Origin: Candidatus Adlerbacteria bacterium
GTDB lineage: Bacteria > Patescibacteriota > Minisyncoccia > Phycocordibacterales > SBAW01
Direction: 5' to 3'
Assembly: GCA_026397405.1 (NCBI GenBank)
Contig: JAPLUW010000001.1
Coordinates: 239,825 to 303,824 of the forward strand
Length of the DNA stretch: 64,000 nt
Of this stretch, positions 14,421-40,689 are shown piece by piece. A model generated the notes under the pieces. That model had not been told where the DNA came from. It saw only the letters and a program-made list of their open reading frames with translations, and did no database searches. Every line of letters begins with the position of its first letter. Positions within the stretch are counted from its first letter, which is position 1. Position numbers and translations under genes: made by a program.

Positions 14421-15764
14421 TCATTTCAACATAAGGCGAATCTGGTTTAACTCGCTTGTGAGCACGCTGTCGCTACGTAGGTCGTTTTTTATTTTTTCGC
14501 ACGAGTGGATAACTGTTGTATGGTCGCGGCCGCCAAGCTTCTCCCCTATTGTGGGGAATGATATCTTAAAATCTTCGCGTAACAAAAACATAATCATCTG
14601 GCGAGGGCGCACCACTTCTTTACGGCGTGTTTTTTCGTAAATACTGTGTTCTTCGACCCCGTAGAAGGCAGAAATTGTGCGCACTACCTCCTGCACAGAG
14701 ACCGCCTTTTTTGTAGCGTTAGATGCGCCACGCAACAACATTTTTGCGTCGTTTATTGTTAGCGGCTCGCTGCCGCGTAGCTCGAATTGTATAAGGAGTA
14801 GATTTAATGCACCCTCCAGTTCACGGACGTTACCCTCAACCGCAGTTGCTAAGTATTCGAGCACTTCGTCGGGCAAAATAACGTTGTGTGCAGAGGCTTT
14901 TGTGCGGACAATAGCCAGACGTGACTCATGGTCGGGCGGGGTTACGGAAAGTATCATCCCCGCGCTAAAGCGCGACTTTAAGCGGTCTTCCAAGTTTTGT
15001 ATAACGTTTGGATGTTGGTCGGAAGAAAAAATCAGCTGTTTGTTACTGTCATGGAGGAAGTTAAACAAATGGAAAAATTCTTCTTTTGTTTTTTCCATCT
15101 TCGCCAAAAATTGCACGTCGTCCATGATAAGCAAGTCGTACTGGCGGTACTTTTCTTTAAACGACTGCACCTTCCCTGCTTGTAGTGATGACACATAGTC
15201 CATGGAAAACTTTTCCGAGGTTACGTACTGTACTTTTCGCTCAGGTGCGTTAACGCGGAAGTGGTTCCCTATCGCCTGTATAAGGTGTGTTTTACCCAAA
15301 CCGGTGGGGCCGTAGATAAGTAATGGGTTGTACGCGCTACCTGGCTTGCGTATAACGGCTTGTGCGGCTGCGTGCGCAAGTTCGTTAAAGGGCCCTACAA
15401 CAAACGACTGTAGGGTAAAACGCGGGTTCAGGTTTGTTTTTGCATGAACGTTTTCAAGCGGCAACTCCGACGGTGCTGCTGGTACGGTACGTGCATCTTC
15501 TACATTTTTTTTAGGTCCGCGTGAGATTATATATTCGACTGTGCGTACCGTGTCGGAAAGTCCGCGCAGTGAGCGTAAGATATCTTTATGAAATTTAGTC
15601 GAAAGCCAGTCGCGAGCAAATTGTGATGGTACACCAAGGTAGACTGTCCCCTCTTCGACTCGTACTACGTGTGTGTCTTTAAACCAGGTATTAAAATTTG
15701 GCTTGGAGATAGTAAGTTCAAGCTCAACAAGTGCGTTTTCCCAAAGTTCTTTCGTGGTGGTCAT
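14421..15764 (-). CDS. dnaA: chromosomal replication initiator DnaA
   Basis: AAA+ GPTGLGKTHL and the C-terminal DnaA signature (GGRDHTTVIHS) are present. The start was trimmed to MTTTKELWENA; the ORF-track start at 15911 would overlap rpmH. Confidence 0.95.
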   Translation of the reverse strand: MTTTKELWENALVELELTISKPNFNTWFKDTHVVRVEEGTVYLGVPSQFARDWLSTKFHKDILRSLRGLSDTVRTVEYIISRGPKKNVEDARTVPAAPSELPLENVHAKTNLNPRFTLQSFVVGPFNELAHAAAQAVIRKPGSAYNPLLIYGPTGLGKTHLIQAIGNHFRVNAPERKVQYVTSEKFSMDYVSSLQAGKVQSFKEKYRQYDLLIMDDVQFLAKMEKTKEEFFHLFNFLHDSNKQLIFSSDQHPNVIQNLEDRLKSRFSAGMILSVTPPDHESRLAIVRTKASAHNVILPDEVLEYLATAVEGNVRELEGALNLLLIQFELRGSEPLTINDAKMLLRGASNATKKAVSVQEVVRTISAFYGVEEHSIYEKTRRKEVVRPRQMIMFLLREDFKISFPTIGEKLGGRDHTTVIHSCEKIKNDLRSDSVLTSELNQIRLMLK

Positions 15765-15865
15765 GGAGGAGGTGGCCTTAAGGATACGCGGGATAGTCTG
15801 GCCCGTCAAAAAACGCGCTTTGTGCACAAGTTGTGGAGAAACTGGGTATAGAGTATATTTGACAC

Positions 15866-16000
15866 ATGTCGCAAACCTACCAGCCAAAAAAGCGTAAGCG
15901 CGCACGTGCACACGGGTTCCTTAAGCGTGCCCGCACCCCAGGGGGTCAGAAAACCGTTGCCCGCAGACGCCACAAAGGCCGCGCTCGTGTAACAGTCTAA
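15866..16000 (+). CDS. rpmH: 50S ribosomal protein L34
   Basis: A 44-aa [47 protein letters not shown], found by reading the sequence. It is below the ORF-track size cutoff. Confidence 0.85.
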
Positions 16001-17042: not shown

Positions 17043-17105
17043 CAACCTAGCCTGTCCGCCGCCGCCGGGTTGCGCGGCACGGGGCACCTAGAGTATTGTG
17101 GCTCT

Positions 17106-17573
17106 ATGACTCCCGAGCTTCTCCAAAATACAGTTTCTACACTGGTTGGGTTGCTCGGCCTTTCGGTTACAAATGTTGCAGTTTCTTCAGGCCACCGCAC
17201 TGTTGTTGCTGTCACCTCCCCCGATGCAGAGCTGCTTATAGGCCAGGATGGCGAACATCTGCGTGCATTAAATGCAGTTGCGCGGAGGTTAGTTGAAAAA
17301 AAGTATGGTGTAGAGGCTGCGAGCTTTCTTATTGATGTAAACGGCTACCACGAACAGCAGATGGAAACAGTTCGCGCAAACGCACGCTTGTTGGCCCAGA
17401 GGGTGCGACTTTTTAAACACGACGTAGAGATGCCACCGCTCAGTTCGTACGAACGCTTAGTGGTGCACGAGTTATTTGCTAACGATGCAGAAGTCGGAAC
17501 CCGCTCCGAAGGCGAAGGTAAATTCCGCCATATTGTGCTTGCAGCCCGTGGTACCGACAAAGCCTCTTTATAA
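17106..17573 (+). CDS. Jag/KhpB-family RNA-binding protein (KH + R3H)
   Basis: C-terminal R3H-like motif (ERLVVHELF). Start chosen at the internal Met. Confidence 0.8.
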   Translation: MTPELLQNTVSTLVGLLGLSVTNVAVSSGHRTVVAVTSPDAELLIGQDGEHLRALNAVARRLVEKKYGVEAASFLIDVNGYHEQQMETVRANARLLAQRVRLFKHDVEMPPLSSYERLVVHELFANDAEVGTRSEGEGKFRHIVLAARGTDKASL

Positions 17574-17581
17574 TTTTTATA

Positions 17582-18790
17582 CTAGAGTCGCACACCCCAG
17601 AGCGAATGGTCTCCGCGAGTGATAAATAGTAGATACTTTCCGTCTGGCGACACCCCAAGTTGGTCAATGGGCGCGCTTGGTCCCCCATTGCCCGGCAACG
17701 TTACCACAACTCCTCCTCCACTATTTGCATCAAATTCTACAATACTGTCCGCCGTTTGTACGAGCCCTTGGTGCCACAAGTCTATGTAGTTTTGGGGTTG
17801 GGTATCGAGCGGCAGTGCGCAGTACAACGTATCGGCTGCAGTGCTGGCCCAAACACATTTTTCGGGCAGTGGTGTTTTTAAAATGTTAGCGTCTCTGCCT
17901 GCTTCAATGTCGTGTATATAGGTGTGCGGTGCGCTGCCGCTACCTGCGTTTGTTTGGTACACAACTTTTGTAAAGGTATTGTTTGCAATCGCCGACAACC
18001 CCGGGGTGTAGAGCAGTGGTGAAAGCCCGCCAGTTTTTGCGTTTATAGAAAATGCGATACCTGGCACCCCTGCGGCACTCTTTGTTTGTGCAATAAGTGC
18101 ATTTTGTGCAGGCCAGGAGAGTAACATTTGTGAAAGCGGCAGAGAAAATAGTTTTTTGCTACCTGTGCCGTCTATGTTTGCTGTAAATGCATTTGCACCA
18201 GTGGCAGTCGTAACTAGATACGCAAGGCTATGTTTGTCAGGCGACACCGTAAGTGACTCCATGCCGTTTGGCAAAAATTGCATACGGGGAGGTATGGCGG
18301 CGTTGGTTGAGGTTGCGGGCGTAAACGTTACGTACACACTTTTTATTACACCCAGCTCCACATACTGGAGTATCGTAGAAGTGCCGTGGTTACCCCACAA
18401 CACTTCGGTAAGGCCCGGTATGGTTACGTTAGAAATAGGGCGCACTGCGGCACCAGGCACGTCGACTGCGAGGTCGGATATATGCCCCGTATCCTGCATA
18501 ACGTAGCGGGCAATGGTTGTTGTTGGGTTAGATGTTTGTACAAACGTGGCACCAGCAACTGGCCCGTCGGCAATTTTAAACACACGCTGGAGAACCTGGT
18601 TCCCTACTTGTCCCGGAGTCGTCGAGTCCCCGACATTTGTTTGTGTTGTTGATACATTACCCCCAATGCCAAAAAAACCAGTCGACGGCGTTCCTGTGCT
18701 TGTGTTTGAGTGGAAAAAGAAAAACAGTAACAATAAAATTATTGCTAGAAAAACGAGCCCTCCTACTATGTAAATGGTTTTATTTTTCAT
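17582..18790 (-). CDS. membrane-anchored extracytoplasmic protein, last gene of the T4SS-like operon
   Basis: N-terminal TM (IYIVGGLVFLAIILLLLFFFF) and a Thr/Gly-rich ectodomain. A beta-propeller-like fold is only guessed. Confidence 0.45.
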   Translation of the reverse strand: MKNKTIYIVGGLVFLAIILLLLFFFFHSNTSTGTPSTGFFGIGGNVSTTQTNVGDSTTPGQVGNQVLQRVFKIADGPVAGATFVQTSNPTTTIARYVMQDTGHISDLAVDVPGAAVRPISNVTIPGLTEVLWGNHGTSTILQYVELGVIKSVYVTFTPATSTNAAIPPRMQFLPNGMESLTVSPDKHSLAYLVTTATGANAFTANIDGTGSKKLFSLPLSQMLLSWPAQNALIAQTKSAAGVPGIAFSINAKTGGLSPLLYTPGLSAIANNTFTKVVYQTNAGSGSAPHTYIHDIEAGRDANILKTPLPEKCVWASTAADTLYCALPLDTQPQNYIDLWHQGLVQTADSIVEFDANSGGGVVVTLPGNGGPSAPIDQLGVSPDGKYLLFITRGDHSLWGVRL

Positions 18791-19845
18791 TCAGTTTGTC
18801 CTAATACAGGCACTCCCCACACAGGATTATTTATAGGAAGCAAACATAATTCTCCTGGCGCGATATCCTTACAAGTATAGGCCCCTGAGTTTGCAAGATA
18901 ACTGCCTGCACACGTTGCTGGTACATTATCGAGCGGGTTAACACTTGTCAAAATGTCTTTGCCAAGTAGTTTGAGAGTAGCTGCGTACAACGGGCCAATT
19001 GGTGAAACTAGAAGACTAAGGCCCAGAACCCCAGTGCCAACTTGTATGTTGGTGCCAGTTTCGTACACCACTCCGTTTTTTCCATTTGCTGTTTGGCAGG
19101 CATTTCGCAGTGCTGCGGTTTGATCTTGTGCTGGGGCTGTCGCTATTCCTACCGCTGTTGAAGGATTTAATATGTTGCATGCAGTCACCAACTGGGGGTT
19201 GATGGTATTTAAAATAATATATGAACTTAACAACAGCAACAGCCCCCACACAGCCGCTTGTATACGTCGGCGAGCAAAGTCTTTTTTGTTTACCACCTCC
19301 GAAATCATGTAGGTAATACCTCCAAGTACTAAAAACAGCACTGCAACCATACCACCTAGGTAGATAAGTAGCTTAAAAATCAAATTTATCAGCTGGCAAA
19401 AATTTGTTTGCCCGTTGGTATTTTGGCCAGGGAGTGGTTCAAGCGGAACGTACGTTAAGTTTGGAGAAGAAGCTGAGCAAGCTCTTCCGCCTACAACACA
19501 ACTTGAACCCTCTGGGCATTTGCCTGCAGAATCAGGCATCCCAACAGGAGTTGCTTTTTCGTCGCTAACACACGTAGGTGTTGAAGCGGATATTGTTGAC
19601 TGTGTAGGTGCGGCTGGTTGATTTGTTGCTGCGGGCGCAGGGTTCGCTGGCGGTGTTGTATTTATTTTTGAGACACACTTTCCTGCGCAATCTGCAGCCG
19701 AATTAAATAAAGATGATACACCTGAACGACAACTAGTTACACATGCATTGTATGCCCCGATATCCACACCAGATTGTGAGTCAGCGAACGTGACGTAAGG
19801 TGTCAGTAATGCAAAAAATAGGAAAAAAATTATTGTTTTTTTCAT
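18787..19845 (-). CDS. secreted Cys-rich protein with a central two-helix pilin-like hairpin (TrbC/VirB2-like?)
   Basis: Signal peptide, many Cys. The central LINLIFKLLIYLGGMVAVLFLVLGGITYMI-basic loop-AAVWGLLLLLSSYIIL resembles T4SS pilin topology. Confidence 0.45.
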   Translation of the reverse strand: MKKTIIFFLFFALLTPYVTFADSQSGVDIGAYNACVTSCRSGVSSLFNSAADCAGKCVSKINTTPPANPAPAATNQPAAPTQSTISASTPTCVSDEKATPVGMPDSAGKCPEGSSCVVGGRACSASSPNLTYVPLEPLPGQNTNGQTNFCQLINLIFKLLIYLGGMVAVLFLVLGGITYMISEVVNKKDFARRRIQAAVWGLLLLLSSYIILNTINPQLVTACNILNPSTAVGIATAPAQDQTAALRNACQTANGKNGVVYETGTNIQVGTGVLGLSLLVSPIGPLYAATLKLLGKDILTSVNPLDNVPATCAGSYLANSGAYTCKDIAPGELCLLPINNPVWGVPVLGQTE

Positions 19846-20927
19846 AAGCCAAAGAATGATGAAATTGCCGAACCTGCACTTTGTCCAAATACAAGCTGCA
19901 GCCGTGTGTCTGCAGCTTGTATAAGTTGGGTGGTGTTGGTATTTTGCACAGTCACACCAATGTCAGCCGCGCCACTCCCACTCCCCGTCTGGCGCAGTGT
20001 AAGCATACCCTGTGCCGCTGCAGGGCCGGTAGTTTCTTGGTCGTTTAACTGCCATGTATAGACAAGCGTTTTATTTTTTACACTGTTAGTTGCAAAAAAA
20101 TACGGCTCTGCTTGCAGCGTAATTTCTTTTTGTGCAAGTGATGCCTTGTCCCTCAACCCTTCTTCCAACAACTCTCCGCGCAGAGGGTCGCGTGCGTACA
20201 GCACCACCTGTGGCGCACTTGCAGGTATGACAATGTCCCCTCTTCCGACCGCCGAGTTGCCCGAGTATATAGTTACCGAAATATCCTCCTCTGTTTGTAG
20301 TTGGTCACCTTGGAAGGAAAATGCCGTTTTTCCCAACCCCGACGCGCTTGTGTCCGGGGTGTCGTTTCGCTTCCATTGGAAGGAAAGCTTGGCAGGGTCT
20401 ACCAGTTTGCCTCCGAGCATTACTGTAGGGAACGCTACAACGCGTAGGTTGGAACCTGCGCTGTAGAGTGGTTTGCCTACGTACAAAAGGGGTGTGTAGG
20501 TGTCTGCTTCCCATACTAGGTTGACAACCGACGGGTTAAACACAAAGTCGCGTGTCATCACCCCAAGTGTCGGCGAGTTAATGACAAGGTGGATGTACGT
20601 TACAGCACCCACCCCGCCTGTCGTAAACGTAAACGACTGTTGCCCTGCGAATGCCTCAACCACCTTGCCGTTTTCCTGCCAGGTAAGGCTGGAGTTGCCC
20701 AAAAATTGCCCAACGCCGTTTACTTCTATATTTACTAATTGGTTTGGTCCTGGGTTTTCGGGCGAGATAATAAACTGCAACGGGTCAGGCACCGCCGACT
20801 GCGCATGTGCAAGTGACGTAGTTACAAAAAAAAGTGCGAATATGCCAATGAGTAATTTATGCCGCATGTGGAATTGGAGTAGCCTCAGTAGTGTTGAAAG
20901 ATTGTCTAGGATGTCGGATACCATCAA
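19842..20927 (-). CDS. secreted protein, unknown function (T4SS-like operon)
   Basis: The signal peptide begins at the internal Met (MRHKLLIGIFALFFVTTSLAHA), so the true start is probably 20867. Overlapping start/stop with neighbours. Confidence 0.45.
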   Translation of the reverse strand: MMVSDILDNLSTLLRLLQFHMRHKLLIGIFALFFVTTSLAHAQSAVPDPLQFIISPENPGPNQLVNIEVNGVGQFLGNSSLTWQENGKVVEAFAGQQSFTFTTGGVGAVTYIHLVINSPTLGVMTRDFVFNPSVVNLVWEADTYTPLLYVGKPLYSAGSNLRVVAFPTVMLGGKLVDPAKLSFQWKRNDTPDTSASGLGKTAFSFQGDQLQTEEDISVTIYSGNSAVGRGDIVIPASAPQVVLYARDPLRGELLEEGLRDKASLAQKEITLQAEPYFFATNSVKNKTLVYTWQLNDQETTGPAAAQGMLTLRQTGSGSGAADIGVTVQNTNTTQLIQAADTRLQLVFGQSAGSAISSFFGL

Positions 20928-21564
20928 TATTTTTTAATTCGGCAGAGACCGCAGACCCTTGTCTGTCGCTTGCTGCGTTTTGTTGTACTTGCGTAGACGC
21001 ACCCTTGTCTCGCGCCATCTGCGCGGTCGCTTGGTTTATGCCCACAATGCCAAGCGCTGTGGCACCAAACACAGTTCCTGGTGCTAGTATTTTTGTAAAC
21101 GCCCCTTGTGCACCCCCTTCCAATTTTCTTTGTTCGGCTTTTTTGCGGACAACAGACATCACTGTCATCAAAGTCCACCCAGGTGCGTTGTTGAGGCCAG
21201 GTACAAGTTCCATAATTGCGCCAAAACCTGCATACCGCCCGTAAAACATGCCGCACAAACGGAGCAGTGCAACAAGGAGCAACCCTAGCGTAACGTCAAT
21301 GCACAGGTTTACGGCAATCCCAAGCCCTACACCAATAGGAATTGTATAGACTGCAAGTGCGTCAGCTGGGGTCGCCACTAACGCACCAGCAGCACCTCCT
21401 ATAAAACAACCAACCCGGTCTGCAATAGCTGCACCTAATGCGCACCCCGCAGCACCTCCTGCAAATGTCCCCGGGAATGCGCCAAATAGGAAAAAAGCAA
21501 ACGCCATAAATGCCTGTGCGCCGTCTATAAGAAGTGCAAAAGCTATAAGTGCCGCTCCCTTCAT
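20857..21564 (-). CDS. Gly/Ala-rich polytopic membrane protein (T4SS-like operon)
   Basis: Multiple TM segments and GxxxG-rich. Confidence 0.45.
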   Translation of the reverse strand: MKGAALIAFALLIDGAQAFMAFAFFLFGAFPGTFAGGAAGCALGAAIADRVGCFIGGAAGALVATPADALAVYTIPIGVGLGIAVNLCIDVTLGLLLVALLRLCGMFYGRYAGFGAIMELVPGLNNAPGWTLMTVMSVVRKKAEQRKLEGGAQGAFTKILAPGTVFGATALGIVGINQATAQMARDKGASTQVQQNAASDRQGSAVSAELKNIDGIRHPRQSFNTTEATPIPHAA

Positions 21565-21598
21565 ACGTTCTATTGTACCGCGTTTATTTTTCTACTCG

Positions 21599-23419
21599 CT
21601 ATGCTTGTGCAGCAGCATCGGCTTTTTGTTTGCGAATAGCCAGCACTTGCGAAGGGTCGGAGGTAATTATTTGGTCTTCAGTGTATGAGGCTATCACTTT
21701 TATAGCTACGTGTTTTAAGCCCGCAAAAAATATTCCCTCCCCCACGTCCGACTCGAGCAACAAGTATTTTTCTTCGTCCGAGAGGTTAAACGTTTTTTGT
21801 AAATTGTCTATGGTTGTAGGCGACTGCTTAAGAAGCAACTGTATAGACGAGTTGGTTATCATGGGTAGCCCGTAGGGTGACTTTAAAAAGTCGTCCACGT
21901 CTTGAGTAATGGTTGCAAGCCCCAAGTAATATTTGCGGCCGCGCTTTGCCATACTGTACAAAAACGAGGCGGTGTCTTCCGACTTCATCATCCACCAGGC
22001 TTCGTCTATAACCAACAAGCGTTTTTTGAGGTTTTTGCGTACCGTGTTCCATATATAGTGGGTAATAAGGTACATGGCGACGGGCTTTAGGTCGTCTTCC
22101 ATGTCGCGGACAGAAAATACAACAAACTTTTTGTTGATGTCGACGTTGGTTGGCTGGTTTATAAACCCCGACCATGTTCCTTTGGTGTACTTTGACAAGC
22201 GCTGTCCCAAAGACTCGCTGCCGTCCATGCCGGCCAACACTGTTTCAAAGTCGGAAAGCAACGGAGGTTCTATTTCTGCGAAATTTGAGTCTATAGTGAT
22301 GTCTTTAAGTGCATACGTTTCAGTAATTGCCTTGTCGATAATAGCGTCTTCTTCGGGCGAAAGGCCTCCAAGCATAATGCGGAAGAGCCCTACCAAGGCA
22401 ACAATGTTGGAGCGCAAAATGTCTGCAGGGTTTTCGTCTTCGCGGGGTATCGGCAGGTCAAAGGGGTTGATATGGTGCTCGGACGAAAGGGAGATATTAA
22501 AGTACCGCCCGCCCACTGTCTGGCTCAAAAATTCGTACTCGCGTTCGGGGTCTATGACGATAACTTCGGTGTCAAACATGAGTGTGCGTAAAATTTCGAG
22601 CTTGGTGGTGTAGCTCTTGCCCGAACCCGACTTGGCAAAAATAACTGAGTTGTAGTTTTCGAGGCTAAAGCGGTCAAAGAGCACAAGCGATGCGTTGTGG
22701 CGGTTAACGCCATACAAAATACCTTTGTCGGAGGTAAGGTCGAACGAAACAAAGGGGAAAATTGATGAAAGCGGGGACGAATTGAGTTTGGAATGTACCT
22801 GCAACTCGTCGCGACCAATAGGCAGGGTGCTTTTAAAGCCCTGCTCTTGCTGGAAGAGCGCGGGTTTTACATATATAAGGCGCGACTCGAGCATTGACTT
22901 AATCTCCGACTCGGTTTTGTCGAGCTCTTCGACTGTTTTGCCGTAGACCGTAATGTACACACCCACGTCAAATATCTTTTCCTCTGCTTGCTGCAGTTGG
23001 TCGCGCAGGTCTTCTAGGTCTTTATATGCAGTGTCTAAAATAGGGTCACGCACCAAGCCTTTTTCTTCCCGCGACATAATTTGGCTCTGTACCTCGGCCA
23101 CCTTTTTTTGGAATTTTTTCAAAATGTCTGCGGAGTCTATAGGGTGCACAAAAATAGATATGTCTAAAACGCGGTCGAGGTTAATGACCGGCGCAAACCA
23201 CGAGTCTGTTAGTGTGCGCGGGTACGACATGACAAAAAATGTGCGGGCAATTTTGTCGCCTAAGTTAATTTCCCGCGGGGTGATTTTTAAAGCACTCGGT
23301 GCAATGACATCTTGCAGTTCAAGCACGCCCTGCTTGTAAATTTGCTCGGGCATAATAGGTGCCAGAGACGATGTGCGAGGGTCGTCAGTTTTTGTTTTTA
23401 AAAAATCAAGGAGTGCCAT
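21599..23419 (-). CDS. VirB4/TrbE/CagE-family T4SS ATPase (major fragment)
   Basis: Walker A FAKSGSGKS and Walker B LLVIDEAWWMM. N-terminal FFVMSYPRTLTDSWF motif region. Confidence 0.85.
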   Translation of the reverse strand: MALLDFLKTKTDDPRTSSLAPIMPEQIYKQGVLELQDVIAPSALKITPREINLGDKIARTFFVMSYPRTLTDSWFAPVINLDRVLDISIFVHPIDSADILKKFQKKVAEVQSQIMSREEKGLVRDPILDTAYKDLEDLRDQLQQAEEKIFDVGVYITVYGKTVEELDKTESEIKSMLESRLIYVKPALFQQEQGFKSTLPIGRDELQVHSKLNSSPLSSIFPFVSFDLTSDKGILYGVNRHNASLVLFDRFSLENYNSVIFAKSGSGKSYTTKLEILRTLMFDTEVIVIDPEREYEFLSQTVGGRYFNISLSSEHHINPFDLPIPREDENPADILRSNIVALVGLFRIMLGGLSPEEDAIIDKAITETYALKDITIDSNFAEIEPPLLSDFETVLAGMDGSESLGQRLSKYTKGTWSGFINQPTNVDINKKFVVFSVRDMEDDLKPVAMYLITHYIWNTVRKNLKKRLLVIDEAWWMMKSEDTASFLYSMAKRGRKYYLGLATITQDVDDFLKSPYGLPMITNSSIQLLLKQSPTTIDNLQKTFNLSDEEKYLLLESDVGEGIFFAGLKHVAIKVIASYTEDQIITSDPSQVLAIRKQKADAAAQA

Positions 23420-23438
23420 AAGAAGTTTCTCTATACTA

Positions 23439-24107
23439 TCATTTTGCTACTTGTGTTACCTGCAGGGGTTTTTCAAGTTCGCCTGGGTTAAAGAGTTTGT
23501 AGAAGAGTTCAATAATTTCCTCTGTCCCCAACCCCACCACACGCACCCCGGTACGTATCAACCCTTGTTCTATAACCGAGACGCGTTGTTCAAGCTGGAC
23601 ACGATACTCTTCAAACTGCTCGTCTGTCAGTGCCCCACCCCCGCTCGTACCCTTTGATGGCAACAGCGCGTTTACTATGCCGGTAATACCACTGCCGCGT
23701 GCAACAAGTGCTGGGTCGTAGGGCACTACTATAAAAAAGTTTTTGGTCATAATGTTTGACCGTGCCGTAAAGTCTTTAATGAAGGCAATGTATTCTTGTA
23801 TTTGGATCTTCATCAGGTCGTCCAGTTCAGCCTTGTAACGAGCCTCCAATAAACCAATATATGGCCGGATATCGAGGTCTCGTGACTGTATAAAAAATTG
23901 TGCGCTAAATTCGAGTGAGTTAAGGAAGTTTTGGAACTGCCCAATTATCGCCGCCTGCTCATCCTGCGACTTTAAGGCTAGGTTGATAGACGATGCCATA
24001 AGCAACGACCGTAAACTGCCATCTTTTAAAATAATAATGCCGCCACGTACCTCTTGTATGGGTACAAATTCTTGTGTTGCCTGCGCTTTTACTGTGTTGT
24101 CAGCCAT
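23439..24107 (-). CDS. possible N-terminal segment of a Gram-positive-type VirB4 encoded as a separate ORF
   Basis: VPIQEVRGGIIILKDGSLRSLLMASSINLALKSQDEQAAI resembles the extreme N-terminus of PrgJ/TcpF-type VirB4, from my memory of the family. It is 19 nt and one frame away from the 606-aa ORF. Confidence 0.45.
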   Translation of the reverse strand: MADNTVKAQATQEFVPIQEVRGGIIILKDGSLRSLLMASSINLALKSQDEQAAIIGQFQNFLNSLEFSAQFFIQSRDLDIRPYIGLLEARYKAELDDLMKIQIQEYIAFIKDFTARSNIMTKNFFIVVPYDPALVARGSGITGIVNALLPSKGTSGGGALTDEQFEEYRVQLEQRVSVIEQGLIRTGVRVVGLGTEEIIELFYKLFNPGELEKPLQVTQVAK

Positions 24108-24109
24108 AA

Positions 24110-24541
24110 TTATACGTTATTTGTCTCCTTTAGAGCGGCGTGTTCTTTAATATTGAGCGACCAGGCAAGGTCTTTAAGGCGACTATCGGAAAGTTTAGGT
24201 ACGATGATAGCTGCAGGGGTACTACTTGCCGGAGTTACTACCTGCCCTTCCCCAGCAGAAGGGAGGCGTTGTTTCCACAAATACAATTTGCTGCCGACAA
24301 AATACCCAAACGCATGTTCTATGGCGTGCACAAACGGGCGGCCGTTCACTTCATAAAATGCGAGCGCCAAAGAAAAACCAACCACAGGCAATGAGAGCGT
24401 GATAGTTATATACAGTGGCAATAGGCTAAAAAAAACAAGGCAGAGTCCCCCGCCCCCGGCCAAGTAGATAAATTGCTTCAGCGTAAGAGGGCCGAATATT
24501 TTATCTTCAACTTCGATAAATTGAGGAACTTGGTAGCGCAT
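24110..24541 (-). CDS. PrgI/VirB3-like small T4SS membrane protein
   Basis: MRYQVPQFIEVEDKIFGPLTLKQFIYL is followed by two TM helices. It sits between the VirB6-like gene and VirB4, as prgI does. Confidence 0.5.
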   Translation of the reverse strand: MRYQVPQFIEVEDKIFGPLTLKQFIYLAGGGGLCLVFFSLLPLYITITLSLPVVGFSLALAFYEVNGRPFVHAIEHAFGYFVGSKLYLWKQRLPSAGEGQVVTPASSTPAAIIVPKLSDSRLKDLAWSLNIKEHAALKETNNV

Positions 24542-24584
24542 TCCCCATTAGTATATATCAGTTTCCGCATGCAGTGCGGAGTAA

Positions 24585-25157
24585 TTACTCAACCGGTTCG
24601 CGATACGGGTCGGTTTTGTATATAGGACGAGGTGCGGCAGTCGCAACTGTTTTTTCTGTGAGCATTTTTTCTGCTGTAGGCATAGAAATTGCGGGTATGA
24701 CAGGGGTAGGTGTCGGAGCACTAGGTCCATCCAGGGGAGCGGCTGTTGCAGGAATGATAGTAGGAAGTGCTGGAGCTGTGGTGACCATAGGTAAGGAAGT
24801 ACGGGGCTCTTCGGGTATGGCTTGAATTTTTTTTGTATCGGTAAAGTGTTTGAGAGCTTCACGTATAGGGGCAAACACTTCAGCACTTATCTCGCCGGCA
24901 ATTACTGCAGCATCTGCGGCTGGTATGGCAAGCTGCTCGGCAATTTGTTGGTTAAATGTGTCGGGGTCAAAAAAACCAAGCATGACAAGCATTGTTTCGT
25001 CTTCCAATTTTCCTACCTGGTCGATATGCAGGCCATGCTTTTGCCCAATAGCGCGAATATGTGTACCCATGTCAGCCGAAAGCACTGCGTCACGCACCTC
25101 TTGCGGTAATTCCGCGAGCCTTTCCTCTATTTGTGTTTTTGTTGAATTCTCTTCCAT
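24585..25157 (-). CDS. hypothetical protein with a Pro/Thr-rich C-terminus (T4SS-like operon)
   Basis: 190 aa, sits in the operon gap. Confidence 0.4.
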   Translation of the reverse strand: MEENSTKTQIEERLAELPQEVRDAVLSADMGTHIRAIGQKHGLHIDQVGKLEDETMLVMLGFFDPDTFNQQIAEQLAIPAADAAVIAGEISAEVFAPIREALKHFTDTKKIQAIPEEPRTSLPMVTTAPALPTIIPATAAPLDGPSAPTPTPVIPAISMPTAEKMLTEKTVATAAPRPIYKTDPYREPVE

Positions 25158-25180
25158 ACTGTGTCCAGATAATTTAATAA

Positions 25181-27652
25181 TTATGCCTTAGGAATATCTT
25201 TTGGCGTTGGGGGTTTTGTTGGTCCGGTCCGGCGTATTCTCTCAAGAGTGCTTCTCATTGCGGGGACATCAGCTCGATTAATTGTAGGTCTTTCATTTTG
25301 CACAGGTGCTAGGCCATTGGAATTGGTGACGAACCCTGTTCCAGCCCGGCTCTTGTCTACCGGAGTCTGGGGCCTCGTTGGATTTTTTTGTGGTTCTACT
25401 ATGGTTTGTTGCTGGGTAGACTCTCTAGATTTTTGAGTTTGTATTGAAGAGAGAGTCTTTTTCCCTTCTCTTGCCAGCCGGGTCTGTTCCTGTTCTTCAG
25501 TGAGTTGAGCTTTTTCAAGCCTGTTGGTTTCTCGCAACCTCGATGCTATTTCTCTAAAGATTGGGCTGTCTGTTATTTCAGTATTTGCTGCTGTCCCAAG
25601 GCCTCCTGGTCTTTGTGCATCTTGCCGAATAGCAGCTTTGGTTAGAGGGCTGCCTACAATTGGAGGAGTAACTACAGGAGGAGGGGTAGGGATTAATTTT
25701 TTCATGGCATCAATGGCTTCTTCTACGTCACTTTTGCCCTTTGCCATCTTGCGGACCTTTAAGGCTCCTTCAATACTACCCAGTGACGGCCCTACTGCCC
25801 TGCCCAGAATAGGGATATCTCTCGCGAAGCCCAGGTTGCCAAGGCTGTCTTCACCTATTCTCTTCTCATATCGTCCCAATCGCGCATTATCAAGTCGTTC
25901 TATTTTCTTCTTTCCGCCTTCTAAATATGGTCCCAATTGAATTTGTATGGCTTTCAGATCCGCTGCCGCTTTGTTTTTTTCCTCCGGACTAGAGGCTTGT
26001 TTAAAGAGTTCTTTGTTCATAAGTTCTGCAAGCTCCAGAGATTTCTTTTGAGTCTCAAACCCAGCTTCTCCGCCTTTGTGATTTTTCTTTAATTTCGCAA
26101 ATTCTCTCTCCGCTTTTTCTTTTTCAGCCGCAGTACTGTTCATATCCTTTGCGTTAGCCTCAACGGTTTTGGCACGGTCTGCAAATTGTTTTGCAATACC
26201 TCCCTTTCCACCGGCCTTGCCAGCATCAATGCCAACTTTGCCTAGTACTGATTTTAGGCCGGACACTCCTCGCACATCCATGCTTGCACCCGCAACCCCT
26301 TTCAGTGCTGCCATGGTCGGTCGCCCAAACACACTATTTGCCGCAAAGTCGCGCATAGTCTGGCTCCGTGCAAGAGCATTTGCGGCACGTCCCGCGGTGT
26401 TGCGTGCAGCCCAGGCCGACGTGCCCGCGCCCATTTGCGCCGCTTTGCCACCTGCCCAGCTGGCGATATTTTGCCCAGCAAGGCTGGTATGTGAGCTAAA
26501 CGAGTTCGAAAATTTAAGCGCAGCAAACATCATAATAGTAATCAACCCCACGCGCACGCCAACGCCCGCAATTATCAAGATAATAGCCTCAAAACCTTTT
26601 CCTCCTAATGCAGTATAAAAAATAGACGGTATAACCCCACCTGTTCCCGCAAGTTCTTTTAGGAACAAGGTAATTATCAAGAACATAAACAGGAATATTG
26701 CCGGGTAAAATGTTGACTCTATAAGGTGCTTTTGCCAAATCACGTACCCTTCCTTTGCGTACTTAACATGCGGCAATGCTTTTGCTGCAAACGCCAGCGG
26801 TGCAAAAATAATTACAAACCATAGCGTGATAATGCGTATCAAAAACTGTATACCAACAGAGAAAAAGACAAATGCTATCAACGCAAACATAATAGCCACA
26901 GCCGTGTATACAAGTATTTGTATACCTACAGTAGCCAAGAAACCACTAAATCCTGTTTGCTGGTTGGTAAAATTTTGAAACGATTTGTCACTGAGGAGAT
27001 TTTGTACCTGTACTGCGTTCATAATCCCAGCGCTCAAGTCTTTTATAAGTGGGTTGCCGCCCGCAAGTGGCGAGGCTCTGGTTGCGGCAATCTTTGGGTT
27101 GTTTGGGTCGCGTACATCTATAGCGTTATAAAACTGTATGGCTAAAATGTTGCCTGCGTCTATGACAATACGCGTTATAAAAAAGCTAAAGTTAATAAGC
27201 AGCGCCATAGTTACCACCATAGCCAGGGTCTTCATGGTGCCAGAGGTTTCTGCTTCGACAATTATTGTATAGGCAATGTATATAAGGATAAACACAAAGA
27301 CCAAGTTGGCTATGTCACGGACCATTGCCCACCCCTGGGAAAGGAAGTCGAGTGCATACGAGGTGCTGTTGAGCCCCAGCTGCACACCAAAATTAAATAC
27401 ATACGCACCGACATACACGAGGCCGCTTGTCCACGACACCGTAAAGATATACACAATAGATCCGATACATGTATCAACGGAGTTGCAAAAACTAGTACTG
27501 GCAGGAGGTGCACCAGCGCCTTGTGCATGCGCCACTGCCGGTGTCCCAAGCACGGCCAGTGCAGGCGAAAACACAACCACAAGCAACACAAAAGCGGTTG
27601 CAATACGTAATGCAATTTTTAGCTTTGATGAATGTAGAAATTTAGAAAGCAT
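25181..27652 (-). CDS. VirB6/TrbL/PrgH-like polytopic T4SS membrane protein with a long charged C-terminal tail
   Basis: Signal peptide, at least 6 TM in the first 400 aa, then an approx. 420-aa hydrophilic Lys/Ala/Gly-rich region. Confidence 0.55.
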   Translation of the reverse strand: MLSKFLHSSKLKIALRIATAFVLLVVVFSPALAVLGTPAVAHAQGAGAPPASTSFCNSVDTCIGSIVYIFTVSWTSGLVYVGAYVFNFGVQLGLNSTSYALDFLSQGWAMVRDIANLVFVFILIYIAYTIIVEAETSGTMKTLAMVVTMALLINFSFFITRIVIDAGNILAIQFYNAIDVRDPNNPKIAATRASPLAGGNPLIKDLSAGIMNAVQVQNLLSDKSFQNFTNQQTGFSGFLATVGIQILVYTAVAIMFALIAFVFFSVGIQFLIRIITLWFVIIFAPLAFAAKALPHVKYAKEGYVIWQKHLIESTFYPAIFLFMFLIITLFLKELAGTGGVIPSIFYTALGGKGFEAIILIIAGVGVRVGLITIMMFAALKFSNSFSSHTSLAGQNIASWAGGKAAQMGAGTSAWAARNTAGRAANALARSQTMRDFAANSVFGRPTMAALKGVAGASMDVRGVSGLKSVLGKVGIDAGKAGGKGGIAKQFADRAKTVEANAKDMNSTAAEKEKAEREFAKLKKNHKGGEAGFETQKKSLELAELMNKELFKQASSPEEKNKAAADLKAIQIQLGPYLEGGKKKIERLDNARLGRYEKRIGEDSLGNLGFARDIPILGRAVGPSLGSIEGALKVRKMAKGKSDVEEAIDAMKKLIPTPPPVVTPPIVGSPLTKAAIRQDAQRPGGLGTAANTEITDSPIFREIASRLRETNRLEKAQLTEEQEQTRLAREGKKTLSSIQTQKSRESTQQQTIVEPQKNPTRPQTPVDKSRAGTGFVTNSNGLAPVQNERPTINRADVPAMRSTLERIRRTGPTKPPTPKDIPKA

Positions 27653-29747
27653 TACATTGTTGGAGCTTTACGGCAGTTTGCTGGTTTAAGGCGTTCATTT
27701 GGCTCTGGAGTGTTGTGCGGTTTTGCTGTGCGTTGACCACGTCATTTTGTGTCGGGATTTTGCCAGAATTCCGCGTCGTGTTGTAGGTAGCCGTTACTGA
27801 ATTTACGTCTGCTGTAGAGCCTGCCGAAAGCGCCTGGCTCTGGAGTTGTTGCATAACAATAATACTATTGTTTGCTGCGGTTATGCGGTCGTTGTAGGCG
27901 TTAATTGTAACGTTCAGCGCATCAATGGTGCTCGACGCTTGTGCGGCGTTTGACTGTGCCAGGCCATATTTTGGTGATGTGCTTGCAACATTGTTCCAAC
28001 AATCAACAAGGTTGTGGAGCTGCTGTTGTGAATTTTCAATATCGCTAATGCTCCCCTGTTGTATTGATGCGTACTGTTGTATGTATGACACATCGCCTTG
28101 CATTTGTGTTAGGAGTGCCTGCCCCAGGTCTTGGGCTTGCAGTTGGTCGGGGCTGTAGAAGTTGCTGCTGTAGCCGCCTGCGCCGCTCAAGTTTGAAAGG
28201 CCCGACTGCAATGTGCGTGTAAGGAGTTGGGTAATGAGCGCACCAAGGATTTCGTCGAAGCTTTTTGCCAAGTTAAGTCCGTCGAGAGAACCATCTAAAG
28301 TTTTTGACAGAGAACTCTCGATTATCTTGCCCGGGGTTGTAGTTTTAAGGTCACAGACTCTATAGTGAGTACCTGCAGGCACTTCTATTGGTTTAACAGA
28401 TTTACCTGGTGAAGTTGCAGGTGCAGAAGTACCCACGTCTTTACAGTTGCTTTCTTCTTTAAAGTCTAAGAACCCCCCGGCTTGTAATAGGTTTGTTTGT
28501 GTTTGGCCTTTTGCCTGCGAGGTTGCCGCATTGAGGCTGACTGACGCAAACATAAATGCGCCGTAGGGGTTGTTGGTCGGCATGGTGGTAAAAGCAATCA
28601 TCCCCGCCCAGTTGCCTGAAAGGAAGTTCCCGGCCATAAAGTTGTTTATGTTTTTTATAATGCCCGTTAAGGTACAAGAGTTGGCATTACGTTGGGCGTA
28701 ACTGCTGGCTATGGCTATTTTTATCTGCAACTGGAAGGGGCTGCACAAAAACGACAATGCACTGCTTTGTATAAATGTGCCCGCTGCGTTGTCGGCAACG
28801 TTAGTAAGGAATTTGCTTGGGTCCTGTACAAACGATGGCGAGCCCTTGAAACCGGAGTTGATCCAGTTCACCACGCTGTTGGTTATTTGCTGGATAGCTA
28901 TTTTTGCAATAGTGCGGGCAATACAACCAAGAAAAGTGTTAACAGAAAATGCTCCGTTTTCGGCACCTACTCCTGCGCCTGCCGTTCCTGCAAGGGCAGT
29001 TGTTCCAGCTACTTCCGCAATCACTTGGCCAACATTTACTTCCATAACGCTAAAGGGCATAAGCGTCGCCATAGTAACTACTCCTGGAGCTTGTGCGGCA
29101 GCTGCGGTTCCGGCTGCAGTTGTAAGGCCGAGCGCTTGCATTGCAAGACTAATACCAGTCGAGGCACCGCAGACAAGTGCGCCGGCGCCAACTGCTATGG
29201 CTGCAGTGCCCGCAAGCCCAAGCCCCCCGCCACCTCCAGCCCCTTGTTGCCCATTGCCGCTGATGCCAATGTCGGGGATAACGCCCCCACCCGTTGGGTT
29301 TGAGTCGAGAATGTTGTTTATTCCTATAGGGTTAAAGACAGTGCCAGGGAAGCCACTGTTTGTAGGAGTAGCTGTTCCTGGGGCAACACCAGAAAGCCAG
29401 ATAACACCCGGCACACCGTTTACACCACCAACCACCCCACCGCCGCCGGTTGCAGTGCCAACGTTCCCAAGTTGTACGTTGGTTTGAGTTTCGGTACCTC
29501 CGTTTTGAGGAAGCGTAGTGCCTACATTGTTTGCCCCGGTAGCCCTGGTACCATTTGTACTACCTGAGTTTGCTGCCGTACCGAAGGTTCCATTTGTGGG
29601 TATTTGTGTGGGTGCCTGGCGGAAAAACCACCACCACGCAAGTAGTACGAGTGCTAGTACTGCGAGTGCGGTGAGGATGATATAAATTACTTTTCGCATG
29701 TGGTTTCTTCCCGCAGTATTTATTGTGGGGTTCCAAACAAAGCCCAC
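27642..29747 (-). CDS. large secreted Gly/Thr/Ala-rich protein with a C-terminal Gln/Asn-rich coiled region
   Basis: TM/signal at MRKVIYIILTALAVLALVLLAWWWF, so the likely start is 29699. Long low-complexity Gly tracts. Confidence 0.5.
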   Translation of the reverse strand: MGFVWNPTINTAGRNHMRKVIYIILTALAVLALVLLAWWWFFRQAPTQIPTNGTFGTAANSGSTNGTRATGANNVGTTLPQNGGTETQTNVQLGNVGTATGGGGVVGGVNGVPGVIWLSGVAPGTATPTNSGFPGTVFNPIGINNILDSNPTGGGVIPDIGISGNGQQGAGGGGGLGLAGTAAIAVGAGALVCGASTGISLAMQALGLTTAAGTAAAAQAPGVVTMATLMPFSVMEVNVGQVIAEVAGTTALAGTAGAGVGAENGAFSVNTFLGCIARTIAKIAIQQITNSVVNWINSGFKGSPSFVQDPSKFLTNVADNAAGTFIQSSALSFLCSPFQLQIKIAIASSYAQRNANSCTLTGIIKNINNFMAGNFLSGNWAGMIAFTTMPTNNPYGAFMFASVSLNAATSQAKGQTQTNLLQAGGFLDFKEESNCKDVGTSAPATSPGKSVKPIEVPAGTHYRVCDLKTTTPGKIIESSLSKTLDGSLDGLNLAKSFDEILGALITQLLTRTLQSGLSNLSGAGGYSSNFYSPDQLQAQDLGQALLTQMQGDVSYIQQYASIQQGSISDIENSQQQLHNLVDCWNNVASTSPKYGLAQSNAAQASSTIDALNVTINAYNDRITAANNSIIVMQQLQSQALSAGSTADVNSVTATYNTTRNSGKIPTQNDVVNAQQNRTTLQSQMNALNQQTAVKLQQCNAF

Positions 29748-30613
29748 GACGCTCCCGGCTCGTCCTTAGTAAAAAGTATACCGTTTTTCCCAAGTGCTTG
29801 CGCGATATTTATAAACATTTTGCCACCATCTTGGGCGAATGAGTTGTATTGCTGGATACCCGAGAGGCCGCGCAGTGGGTCCGACAGCACAGTTTGCATG
29901 TCTGCATATGTTGCAATCATTTTTGCAAAGTCGTTCAACAGCCCTAAGTGAAAAGGAAGAAGTGTTTTCGGTACGTCTATAGCAAGCATGCCCTTTATAA
30001 ACACAGCATACTTTTTTTGGATGGCCGGGAACTCTTTAAATTGGATTGGGTCGTTGGTTGCGGTAACAGTGTCAATAATCGCCAGCGTTTTAAGGAATTC
30101 TCCGTTTGCATTTTTCTTAAAAACAGTCATCAACGCATTGCCATAGTCGTGCAAACTCGTGGGTGAATTGTCAGTAGCCGTAATATCAGCCTCACTATAT
30201 TGTTTTGTAGGCTGCGTCGTTCCAATTTGGGCAAGTGCGCCATTAATAAGTTCGTTTTGTGTTGGGATGTCGTCTCCGAGGCCTTGGGTTTTTGCATTGC
30301 TTAAGTTAACAAGCAAGGTACGTGAAAGGCGGTCGGTAATATTTGAGCTTTGCGCCGCTTGTAAAAGGTTGTTGACATCATTTTGGTCGGCCGGGGTTGG
30401 GAGGTTGGTTCCCGACTCTGCCTGTACCGTGTCGAGCGTCGTTTGCCAATTTGGGTCGGTAGTACCTGCATGCGGTGTCTGCGCAACTGTAATAGTGGGC
30501 GCCGGAGCATGTGTTGTAAATGCATTCGCTGCAAATACGAGCCCTACTGAAAGTAATATAGAGCCAAAAATAACGGAAAATTGCGTACTGGGGAAATATT
30601 TTGGTACCTTCAT
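29720..30613 (-). CDS. secreted protein, first gene of the T4SS-like operon
   Basis: Signal peptide MKVPKYFPSTQFSVIFGSILLSVGLVFAANA, 297 aa. Confidence 0.5.
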   Translation of the reverse strand: MKVPKYFPSTQFSVIFGSILLSVGLVFAANAFTTHAPAPTITVAQTPHAGTTDPNWQTTLDTVQAESGTNLPTPADQNDVNNLLQAAQSSNITDRLSRTLLVNLSNAKTQGLGDDIPTQNELINGALAQIGTTQPTKQYSEADITATDNSPTSLHDYGNALMTVFKKNANGEFLKTLAIIDTVTATNDPIQFKEFPAIQKKYAVFIKGMLAIDVPKTLLPFHLGLLNDFAKMIATYADMQTVLSDPLRGLSGIQQYNSFAQDGGKMFINIAQALGKNGILFTKDEPGASWALFGTPQ

Positions 30614-30620
30614 TTACCTA

Positions 30621-30651
30621 TAAGTATACCGTTGTTTTTGGAGTATACTTA
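30621..30651. promoter_or_regulatory. Inverted repeat TAAGTATAC-N13-GTATACTTA in the divergent promoter region upstream of the T4SS-like operon
   Basis: Perfect 9-bp arms, read directly from the sequence. Confidence 0.35.
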
Positions 30652-30659
30652 TTTTATAT

Positions 30660-31097
30660 ATGAAAGGCATAGTGCGTTTTACAGCCGGTATTGTCCTCGC
30701 CGCAACATTGCTCGCACCTTTTTCCGCTTCTGCGCAGGCTCAGGCGGGGCTTTCCTTTGGTGGGAGGATTACTTTTGTACTTCCTTGTCTTAGTTTGCTT
30801 GGTCCTTCTGTATGGACTGTTATTGTGCCTGCCCCATTTACTAAATTTCCTGCCTATGTGTGGACTGTGGCAACGCTGCGCGGAGGGCCCCCGTCTTTTA
30901 TAATGCCTGACCTTCCCCCACCTTTTCATCCTGGACAAGAAATTGCAGGCATTGCAGACATCCCTTTCTGGTGCTGTGCTCCCGGGTCAGTTCCAACTCC
31001 AGTACCATTTAGTTGCATCTCCAGTACCTTCCCATTTGTGGTATGGCCTCCACTTCCGGGGCAGCGTATGCAATGGGCAAACCAGAGCGTAATATAA
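30660..31097 (+). CDS. small secreted Pro/Cys-rich protein
   Basis: Signal peptide MKGIVRFTAGIVLAATLLAPFSASAQA. It diverges from the T4SS-like operon. Confidence 0.4.
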   Translation: MKGIVRFTAGIVLAATLLAPFSASAQAQAGLSFGGRITFVLPCLSLLGPSVWTVIVPAPFTKFPAYVWTVATLRGGPPSFIMPDLPPPFHPGQEIAGIADIPFWCCAPGSVPTPVPFSCISSTFPFVVWPPLPGQRMQWANQSVI

Positions 31098-40650: not shown

Positions 40651-40689
40651 GCATACACTGTAAGCCAAAAACACCCTCCCGCCTATTAC

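Follow-up and report, generated by a model that had tools for sequence, protein, structure and literature searches.

The closest described relatives of the gene cluster reported here are the type IV secretion systems (T4SSs) of Patescibacteria. Among the 3,035 Patescibacteria genomes surveyed by Quinonero-Coronel et al. 2025 (Microb Genom 11:001409, PMC12102498), VirB4 was present in 2,417, and nearly all of these proteins form a monophyletic clade nested in MPF_FATA. TrsD, PrgI/VirB3, VirB6 and VirB2-like pilins are encoded near virB4, VirB8 is rarely found and relaxases are nearly absent (103 of the 3,035 genomes). In Paceibacteria, the T4SS locus adjoins dnaA, dnaN, ksgA, rnpA and rpmH, Adlerbacteria assemblies appear in the genome table as Paceibacteria that have VirB4, and the published phylogeny indicates vertical inheritance within classes (PMC12102498). 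We analysed a 64,000-nt stretch of DNA from Candidatus Adlerbacteria bacterium (contig JAPLUW010000001.1, positions 239,825 to 303,824), hereafter the window, in which positions 17582-30613 are filled by an uninterrupted run of eleven minus-strand open reading frames (ORFs), g1 to g11. We consider it very probable that this locus is a chromosomal, vertically inherited T4SS of the Patescibacteria clade with the Paceibacteria layout, located beside the replication origin, most likely non-conjugative and serving episymbiosis as a contact-dependent conduit.

Work on related systems bears on what such a machine does. In Southlakia epibionticum, so far the one species examined genetically, transposon sequencing showed that T4SS genes and pilins are essential, and comEC dispensable (Wang et al. 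2023, Cell 186:4803, PMC10633639; PMC12857230). A 2025 review treats the Patescibacteria systems as a new T4SS group with potential pili and mentions an 'extended VirB6' (PMC12857230). A 2026 bioRxiv preprint (10.64898/2026.06.21.733656) describes tubular structures, possibly T4SS pili, running from a cultured Microgenomatia parasite toward, and apparently into, the host envelope; the parasite feeds on host RNA, and the authors of the preprint see PNPase and VirB4, each monophyletic in the phylum, as linked traits of ancestral origin in RNA-feeding Patescibacteria. At the system level, the locus described here offers nothing new: the system is already known, and our interpretation coincides with current opinion. 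The non-conjugative function in host interaction or uptake that we predict matches the published view (PMC12102498, PMC10633639, PMC12857230), and the first-pass annotation of this DNA overstated the novelty of a system that these three papers had already described.

Layout of the locus

We scanned the GTDB, using one genome per species and g7 as the query, and found at least 585 relatives, the best 80 of which supplied the related loci compared here. The eleven-gene minus-strand cluster, as first delineated, matches the gene calls of the NCBI annotation pipeline (PGAP), and it is far beyond chance, because its gene order recurs in the genomes of about 80 other species. Ten of the eleven products are identical to PGAP proteins (set MCX6819918-928, NT019_01355-01405, from a metagenome-assembled genome of Candidatus Adlerbacteria), and the remaining one, g2, corresponds to NT019_01400 at 100% identity, with the PGAP start 16 codons later. 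For g9, PGAP uses an internal ATG at 20867 (341 aa), which yields a canonical signal peptide and is probably the true start, and the longest ORF begins at 20927. The genes, in transcriptional order and in window coordinates, are as follows.

29720..30613, minus strand: g1, 297 aa, bitopic envelope protein (ORF and PGAP NT019_01405)
27642..29747, minus strand: g2, 701 aa (PGAP 685 aa, start 29699), putative surface/adhesin-like accessory protein
25181..27652, minus strand: g3, 823 aa, 'extended' VirB6/TrbL-like polytopic membrane protein (Pfam matches of homologues, fold, hhalign)
24585..25157, minus strand: g4, 190 aa, soluble, presumably cytoplasmic protein
24110..24541, minus strand: g5, 143 aa, PrgI/VirB3-family small membrane protein (PF12666)
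23439..24107, minus strand: g6, 222 aa, TrsD/TraD-like VirB4 N-domain (NCBIfam)
21599..23419, minus strand: g7, 606 aa, VirB4-type ATPase, C-terminal motor part (NF045971)
20857..21564, minus strand: g8, 235 aa, Gly/Ala-rich polytopic membrane protein, glycine-zipper-like
19842..20867 (longest ORF from 20927), minus strand: g9, 341 aa, secreted protein with tandem Ig-like/PKD-like domains
18787..19845, minus strand: g10, 352 aa, VirB2-type T4SS pilin core with ectodomains (PF18895)
17582..18790, minus strand: g11, 402 aa, N-terminally membrane-anchored, probable TolB-like beta-propeller

The stop and start codons of neighbouring genes had been described as touching or overlapping throughout, which holds for about half of the junctions. 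Taking 20867 as the start of g9, four junctions overlap (-4, -4, -11 and -11, one of the latter being the 11 nt shared by g2 and the VirB6-like gene g3), the spacing of g1 and g2 is -28 or +20, according to which g2 start is chosen, and the rest have gaps of 2, 19, 23, 34 and 43 nt. Within the core, the order is VirB6-like (g3), g4, PrgI (g5), TrsD-like (g6) and VirB4 (g7). An Rfam scan returned only five tRNAs across the window, none of them within the T4SS locus.

Core components of the secretion system

The core predicted from these genes comprises a cytoplasmic-membrane VirB3 anchor, a split VirB4, an extended VirB6-like protein and one VirB2-type pilin. The VirB4 ATPase had been recognised at first reading by its Walker A and B motifs, and g7 indeed matches the NCBIfam CD1110-family VirB4 model NF045971 at 391.5 bits (cutoff 325), covering profile positions 184-733, with further Pfam matches to P-loop_TraG, AAA_10 and DUF87. 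The Walker A motif GSGKS lies at residue 265 (window 22613-22627) and the Walker B motif VIDEAW at residue 470 (window 21995-22012). The best 80 of the at least 585 g7 relatives are all Patescibacteria, at 75-92% identity, and come from Adler-, Nomura-, Kaiser-, Campbell-, Taylor- and Zambryskibacteria and from Paceibacterota; judged by similarity, g7 groups with the VirB4 proteins of Patescibacteria.

Directly before the ATPase gene, 19 nt upstream, lies g6, a 222-aa ORF that the first-pass annotation had left undescribed. Its product matches the NCBIfam TrsD/TraD family (E = 1.1e-8, below the family cutoff) and aligns to positions 100-233 of the Mbov_0397 VirB4 and 2-118 of the CD1110 VirB4, again below the family cutoffs, and on the strength of these alignments we assign it as the VirB4 N-terminal domain, separately encoded. 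A separate ORF of 209-231 aa occurs in 78 of the 80 loci, with a median identity of 60%, which indicates that the split VirB4 is ancestral and no sequencing frameshift; the possibility that g6 and g7 are the halves of a frameshifted VirB4 was ruled out on this count. The gene two places upstream of virB4, g5, is named 'PrgI family protein' by PGAP and matches Pfam PF12666 (PrgI) at 37.2 bits against a gathering score of 27 (E = 4.3e-9), in line with the small PrgI/VirB3-like membrane protein proposed at the outset. It is retained in 77 of the 80 loci at a median identity of 51%, and by family membership (PrgI/VirB3) it is the predicted membrane anchor or partner of VirB4.

The 823-aa protein g3 has about six to seven transmembrane (TM) helices, seen as TM-like segments in residues 1-400, followed by a charged, coiled-coil, Pro-rich C-terminal extension of about 400 aa; owing to this long charged extension it fits the 'extended VirB6' type of the 2025 review (PMC12857230). 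Its relation to VirB6, already suspected at first reading, emerges transitively. The TrbL/VirB6 family PF04610 was matched by 3 of 29 syntenic homologues (best E = 6e-5) and is precomputed for 13 of 90 database homologues with 40-45% identity; PF19590 occurs in four of the 90. An AF2 model of residues 1-450 (pLDDT 83.8, pTM 0.74) was compared by Foldseek with 350,542 PDB chains, and the VirB6 protein TrwI of R388 was retrieved at ranks 1, 2, 4, 10 and 12, with DotA at rank 3; the TrwI/VirB6 chains 8rt9_F, 8rtd_L and 7o3v_F gave probabilities of 0.99-1.0 and TMt values of 0.40-0.53, with weak E-values of 0.014-0.8. Aligning the g3 family profile to TrwI with hhalign gave E = 4e-4, with an aligned block R273...P285...W306...L310 that is invariant, while TrwI was not significant in a PDB profile search with g3 (E = 2.4). 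Taken together, the support for a VirB6-like g3 is convergent, though moderate and transitive.

The pilin is g10, the Cys-rich protein with a pilin-like two-helix hairpin of the earlier annotation, which matches Pfam PF18895 (T4SS_pilin) at 27.5 bits with a gathering score of 26.6. Matches to TrbC/VirB2 (Pfam, E = 0.068) and to the NCBIfam Mbov_0395 pilin-like family are weak. The hairpin spans residues ~148-215, with TM segments at 159-177 and 195-213 and a basic loop between them, and is preceded by a LEPLPG motif at residue 135. On either side of this core lies an ectodomain that is hypervariable between species, the N-terminal one being Cys-rich. Among the 54 homologues found in the related loci, only residues ~130-220 are conserved, lengths range from 134 to 580 aa and Cys counts from 0 to 15, and either terminal part may be missing or may reach several hundred residues, even where VirB4 is 90% identical. 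The same pilin domain recurs in P0312, a homologue of g9 that joins g9-like Ig domains to a T4SS_pilin domain (residues 396-462, 29.9 bits) that carries the motif PLEPLPG, as in g10. In eight loci (L016, L019, L030, L034, L041, L049, L078 and L079) the order is g9-g11-g10, a local rearrangement that has placed the pilin gene after the propeller gene in a locus that is otherwise fixed.

Comparison with known systems

The locus resembles the Patescibacteria-clade T4SS (PMC12102498) in its nearest VirB4s and in having TrsD-like, PrgI/VirB3, VirB6 and VirB2-like pilin genes beside virB4, and it follows the Paceibacteria layout (Figs 5-6 of that paper) in lacking a relaxase and a nearby type IV coupling protein (T4CP) and in its chromosomal position beside dnaA, dnaN and ksgA (rsmA). 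Nothing essential differs, the one peculiarity being that a single pilin gene with large variable ectodomains is found here and no pilin array. The genes g1, g2, g4, g9 and g11 are not named in that paper, where they belong to the unannotated 'grey' genes. The locus SEML1_0006-0019 of Southlakia epibionticum is likewise a monoderm-type T4SS of an episymbiotic reduced bacterium, with no recognisable coupling protein or relaxase, and is also origin-proximal by locus-tag numbering; in contrast to our locus, this Saccharimonadia system has six divergent pilins in an array and adjacent peptidase and lysozyme genes, and it is there that essentiality has been shown.

With the Gram-positive MPF_FATA systems (pCF10 prgH-prgI-prgJ; pGO1 trsC-trsD-trsE; C. 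difficile CTn2 CD1110), the locus shares a CD1110-family VirB4, a PrgI-family VirB3 and a VirB6-like gene upstream of prgI and virB4, as well as the absence of VirB7/9/10, and with pGO1 in particular a separate TrsD-like VirB4 N-domain. The parallel previously drawn to the prgH-prgI-prgJ order is correct as to the order, but two genes, g4 and g6, are inserted here. The assignment to a monoderm, MPF_FATA-related T4SS stands, with hidden Markov model (HMM) support for four components besides VirB4 (g5, g10, g6 and, transitively, g3). Unlike MPF_FATA systems, the locus lacks a T4CP (PcfC/TraK), a relaxase, a VirB1-type hydrolase within the cluster and any recognisable VirB8-like protein, whereas it has a VirB2-type pilin, which the Gram-positive MPF_FATA systems do not; and unlike the conjugative members of that group it is chromosomal, non-mobile and vertically inherited. 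The MPF_T systems of R388 and Agrobacterium share a VirB2-like pilin, VirB3, VirB4 and VirB6, and TrwI/VirB6 is the best PDB fold match of the g3 AF2 model, but homologues of VirB5, VirB7, VirB9, VirB10 and VirB11 are absent here and the envelope is monoderm. For VirB9 and VirB10 of the outer-membrane core (VirB7/VirB9/VirB10), neither Pfam nor NCBIfam gave a match.

Genomic context and conservation

We found that the cluster sits among housekeeping genes. Upstream lie uvrD/pcrA and rsmA/ksgA, the latter 0.5 kb from the cluster, and downstream follow jag/khpB (17070-17573, convergent), yidC, dnaA (14421-15911), 1.7 kb beyond g11, and dnaN, 3.4 kb beyond g11; farther neighbours encode PBP1, TyrRS, RuvB, a PilB-type ATPase and PolA. 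Wherever the contig was long enough, the order uvrD-rsmA-g1-g2-g3-g4-g5-g6-g7-(g8)-g9-g10-g11-(jag)-yidC-dnaA-dnaN was kept across the related loci. The GC content of the cluster (0.47-0.50) is the same as that of the flanks, the sole recombinase of the 64-kb window is of the XerC/D type and lies 12.6 kb away, and no integrase or att site was found within the 64 kb. The absence of VirD4, relaxase and VirB11 from the operon, which had been pointed out before, extends further: Pfam and NCBIfam scans found no relaxase, VirD4/T4CP or VirB11, either within the cluster or among the large ORFs of the window as a whole.

In the 53 genomes carrying VirB4, DnaA and DnaN, VirB4 was more conserved than DnaA in every case (53/53), with median identities of 78% for VirB4, 55% for DnaA and 39% for DnaN, and of 25-39% for the envelope components of the locus; the loci were picked by VirB4 similarity, which somewhat favours VirB4 in the comparison with DnaA. 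These identities indicate strong purifying selection on VirB4, which is more constrained than DnaA; the pilin, of which only the core aligns between species, contrasts with this.

These observations bear on the possibility that the cluster belongs to an ordinary conjugative element, be it an integrative and conjugative element (ICE) or an integrated plasmid, with its relaxase, T4CP and oriT located outside the operon. The g7 VirB4 does belong to a family related to the conjugative CD1110/MPF_FATA proteins, many Patescibacteria genomes carry VirD4-like genes elsewhere, and relaxases do occur in the 103 genomes of the survey mentioned above. However, the housekeeping flanks, the identical position on the dnaA side in about 80 species, the lack of a GC shift and the absence of integrase, att site, relaxase and T4CP within 64 kb, with a XerC/D-type recombinase only, speak against it, as do vertical inheritance in the published phylogeny and a VirB4 more conserved than DnaA, which is the opposite of what a mobile accessory gene would show. 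Synteny of the entire region in about 80 Paceibacteria species argues in itself that the locus is not an ICE. We regard this explanation as very improbable and largely refuted; an ICE or plasmid origin was ruled out on the flanks, the synteny, the GC content and the type of recombinase. The outcomes that the first-pass annotation would have counted against its own proposal did not appear: HMM support extends beyond VirB4, no relaxase, T4CP or VirB11 turned up among the ORFs of the window, and the cluster has housekeeping flanks. A chromosomal machine is thus the preferred reading, one that is most likely non-conjugative because the DNA-processing parts are absent; a housekeeping role in episymbiosis is favoured over conjugation by three things together, namely that relaxase and T4CP are missing, that the ATPase is under strong purifying selection and that inheritance is vertical.

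On the dnaA/dnaN side, 10.5 kb past g11, the PilB/GspE-type ATPase (5335-7035, plus strand) is of the kind used in type IV pilus assembly. Along with the T4SS, this pilus is a surface machine reported as essential in Saccharibacteria.

Accessory envelope proteins

None of the products g1, g2, g4, g8, g9 and g11 could be assigned to a Pfam or NCBIfam family, and by the locus comparison five of these six accessory envelope proteins are conserved across species. The most widely retained is g9, present in 78 of the 80 loci, with at least 339 homologues, all from Patescibacteria and all annotated as hypothetical. It has a signal peptide followed by tandem Ig-like/PKD-like beta-sandwich domains; among 29 homologues Pfam reported BiPBP_C in eight and Ig_3 in six, as well as PKD, and the g9 profile matches the Ig-like protein Hoc at E = 1.4e-3. 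The protein g11, found in 66 of the 80 loci, has a TM segment at residues 8-26 and the invariant cysteines C312 and C324. The protein from the window has no Pfam or NCBIfam match itself, but its profile matches a TolB propeller at E = 1e-3 and one of 29 homologues contains PD40, pointing to a probable extracytoplasmic TolB-like beta-propeller.

The family of g2 has more than 394 members, every one annotated as hypothetical. The protein g2 opens with a TM anchor and a low-complexity stretch of about 250 residues made up of Gly, Thr, Ala and Asn; next come a conserved domain that contains Cys and a beta-hairpin, and long helices form a bundle at the C-terminus. In the structure model the bundle reaches pLDDT >90 and the Cys domain is poorly modelled. 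Low-complexity sequence had been said to dominate the three large secreted proteins, but it is confined to these N-terminal ~250 aa of g2, while g9 is Ig-like and g11 a probable propeller. Galactose-binding domains of the F5/8-type-C or NedA kind occur in the variable part of the syntenic g2 orthologues (7/29), as do bacterial Ig-like domains and, in two cases, DUF4141. Membership of g2 in the VirB5/TrbJ pilus-tip family was not supported, sequence or fold similarity to VirB5 (TrwJ/TraC) having been sought and not found. The first gene, g1, was found in 33-37 of the 80 loci, in each case with rsmA on one side and g2 on the other, at about 25% identity. Its product has a single TM-like segment (residues 14-32), then a linker rich in Thr, Gln and Pro, and at the C-terminus a conserved domain that is mostly helical. 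Its homologues bear DxDxDG Ca-binding-like repeats, and Ca-binding repeat motifs were the sole matches of g1 in a PDB profile search.

Two accessory genes are interleaved with the core. Between the VirB6-like gene and prgI, in 54-63 of the 80 loci, lies g4, which has neither a TM segment nor a signal peptide and found no match in Pfam, NCBIfam or the PDB-profile search. It consists of a conserved N-terminal domain of ~105 aa, a Pro/Ala/Thr-rich variable spacer and a C-terminal DPYREP motif in which D183, Y185, R186 and E187 are invariant; this motif (residues 183-187) might serve as a small docking site for a partner, VirB4 for example. The slot of g8 is lineage-variable, with a small protein of two to five TM segments in ~45 of 75 loci and none in ~30. 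The g8 protein itself has three to four TM-like segments and weak Gly-zipper Pfam matches, and its sequence similarity is confined to nine close relatives. In L002 (2229-3929) and L004 (11812-13449), g8-like and g9-like parts form one ORF of 545-566 aa, and these fusions, together with the g9-pilin fusion P0312, support the view that g8, g9 and the pilin are functionally linked. The idea of g8 as a second pilin was discarded, since BLASTP against the pilin-containing P0312 gave no similarity and Pfam only the weak Gly-zipper matches.

No Pfam, NCBIfam or PDB-profile match of g1, g9 or g11 points to the NTF2-fold protein VirB8, and a VirB1-type hydrolase domain is absent from all eleven products by Pfam and NCBIfam. 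A peptidoglycan endopeptidase with LysM and M23 domains (DipM/MepM-like) is encoded at 34144-35310 on the plus strand, 3.5 kb upstream of the cluster, and the literature counts M23/LysM proteins among the candidates that could replace VirB1 in Patescibacteria. The 517-bp 'gap' before g1 is not empty, as it contains a divergent 145-aa ORF (30660-31097, plus strand) that starts 46 bp from the start of g1; the encoded product clearly begins with a signal peptide, and its mature part is rich in Pro and Cys. The closest relatives (L006-L008) keep this ORF between rsmA and g1 at 36-44% identity.

The locus bears several signatures of surface exposure: signal peptides and TM anchors, hypervariable pilin termini, lectin and Ig modules in g2 orthologues, and the g9-pilin fusion. 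One explanation built on them is that the machine is an effector-export or adhesion organelle, which would send proteins into or onto the host, or whose pilus alone would act as a host-specific adhesin, with no nucleic-acid transport. Hypervariable pilin ectodomains, the lectin/Ig modules of the g2 orthologues and the Ig-like and propeller folds of the accessory proteins agree with it, Wang et al. (PMC10633639) suggest protein export, and speculation about effector delivery is noted in PMC11665869. Yet no candidate effectors, chaperones or T4CP-type substrate receptor were found in or near the locus, and most effector-translocating T4SSs need a T4CP, the exceptions being Ptl and the Brucella VirB system. 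We consider this explanation rather unlikely, if still worth entertaining.

Transcription units

A TAnAnT box ending 6-11 nt before the ATG, with no Shine-Dalgarno sequence, was found for 11 of 41 genes, against a rough expectation of 1-2, which suggests that leaderless mRNAs are common in this genome. Such -10-like boxes precede g1 (30614-30640), g5 (24542-24565) and g8 (21565-21590), implying internal promoters in the T4SS cluster, which may be transcribed as three units, g1-g4, g5-g7 and g8-g11. In view of the boxes before g5 and g8, the description of the cluster as a single operon was overstated. A scan of the locus for consensus sigma-70 promoters and terminators found fewer promoter-like sites than in shuffled sequences and was uninformative.

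Proposed mechanism and role in episymbiosis

For the preferred non-conjugative conduit, the predicted components suggest the following arrangement. VirB4 would dock on VirB3 and VirB6, pull the pilin from the membrane and polymerise it into a pilus or channel through the monoderm wall. If the basic inter-helix loop of g10 faces the cytoplasm, as we propose, both hypervariable, Cys-rich termini would face outward, where they would coat the filament and give host-specific contact. The wall-spanning and host-contact part would be built or anchored by g2, g9, g11 and g1, whose topology is extracytoplasmic and whose folds or modules are of the adhesion type, and the resulting conduit would either export effectors or import host macromolecules. 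A more specific proposal is that the unannotated extracellular module (g2, g9, g11, g1 and the hypervariable pilin) forms a filament of a new kind, decorated and host-specific, that would include a functional but non-homologous counterpart of the VirB5 tip and through which host macromolecules such as RNA or nucleotides would be imported; we hold this to be unlikely.

Import can also be considered by itself, as a sub-case of the conduit model in which the T4SS works inward as a nucleic-acid importer, like ComB of H. pylori or the archaeal Ced system, so that host DNA or RNA would feed a cell unable to make nucleotides. No relaxase or T4CP is present in the locus, g7 weakly matches CedB (E = 1.4e-9) and CedD (E = 3e-4) in NCBIfam, and import has been proposed in PMC12102498 and PMC11665869. 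Host-RNA feeding has been shown in the cultured Microgenomatia member with possible T4SS pili, in a phylum where VirB4 and PNPase are each monophyletic, and the window also encodes a PNPase (38395-40674, minus strand), 8 kb from the cluster, a proximity that may be coincidental. Against this, the CedB and CedD matches are generic P-loop similarities far under the cutoffs (37 bits vs 700), and the cluster contains no recognisable component that would bind DNA or RNA. We consider an importer, like the export or adhesion organelle, rather unlikely.

Several points weigh against the conduit interpretation as a whole. A T4CP could be encoded elsewhere in the genome, which would leave room for conjugation or DNA transfer, and VirD4/T4CP homologues do occur in most Patescibacteria genomes, far from virB4 and rarely nearby (PMC12102498). 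The VirB6 call is moderate, g3 itself having no direct Pfam match, with a Foldseek E-value of 0.014 and an hhalign probability of 35%, and the pilin match of g10 exceeds the gathering score by 0.9 bits only. The cluster yielded neither a VirB8-like nor a VirB1-like protein, and the roles proposed for the accessory proteins g1, g2, g4, g8, g9 and g11 are drawn from topology, hints of fold and synteny. The essentiality data come from a different class, the Saccharimonadia.

Patescibacteria make up a large share of bacterial diversity, and the T4SS is among their few candidate machines for taking host resources. The locus is a clean and complete example of the Paceibacteria layout and leaves the current picture of the system unchanged. 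The five to six accessory proteins that are co-inherited with the core provide concrete targets for complex structure prediction and genetics.

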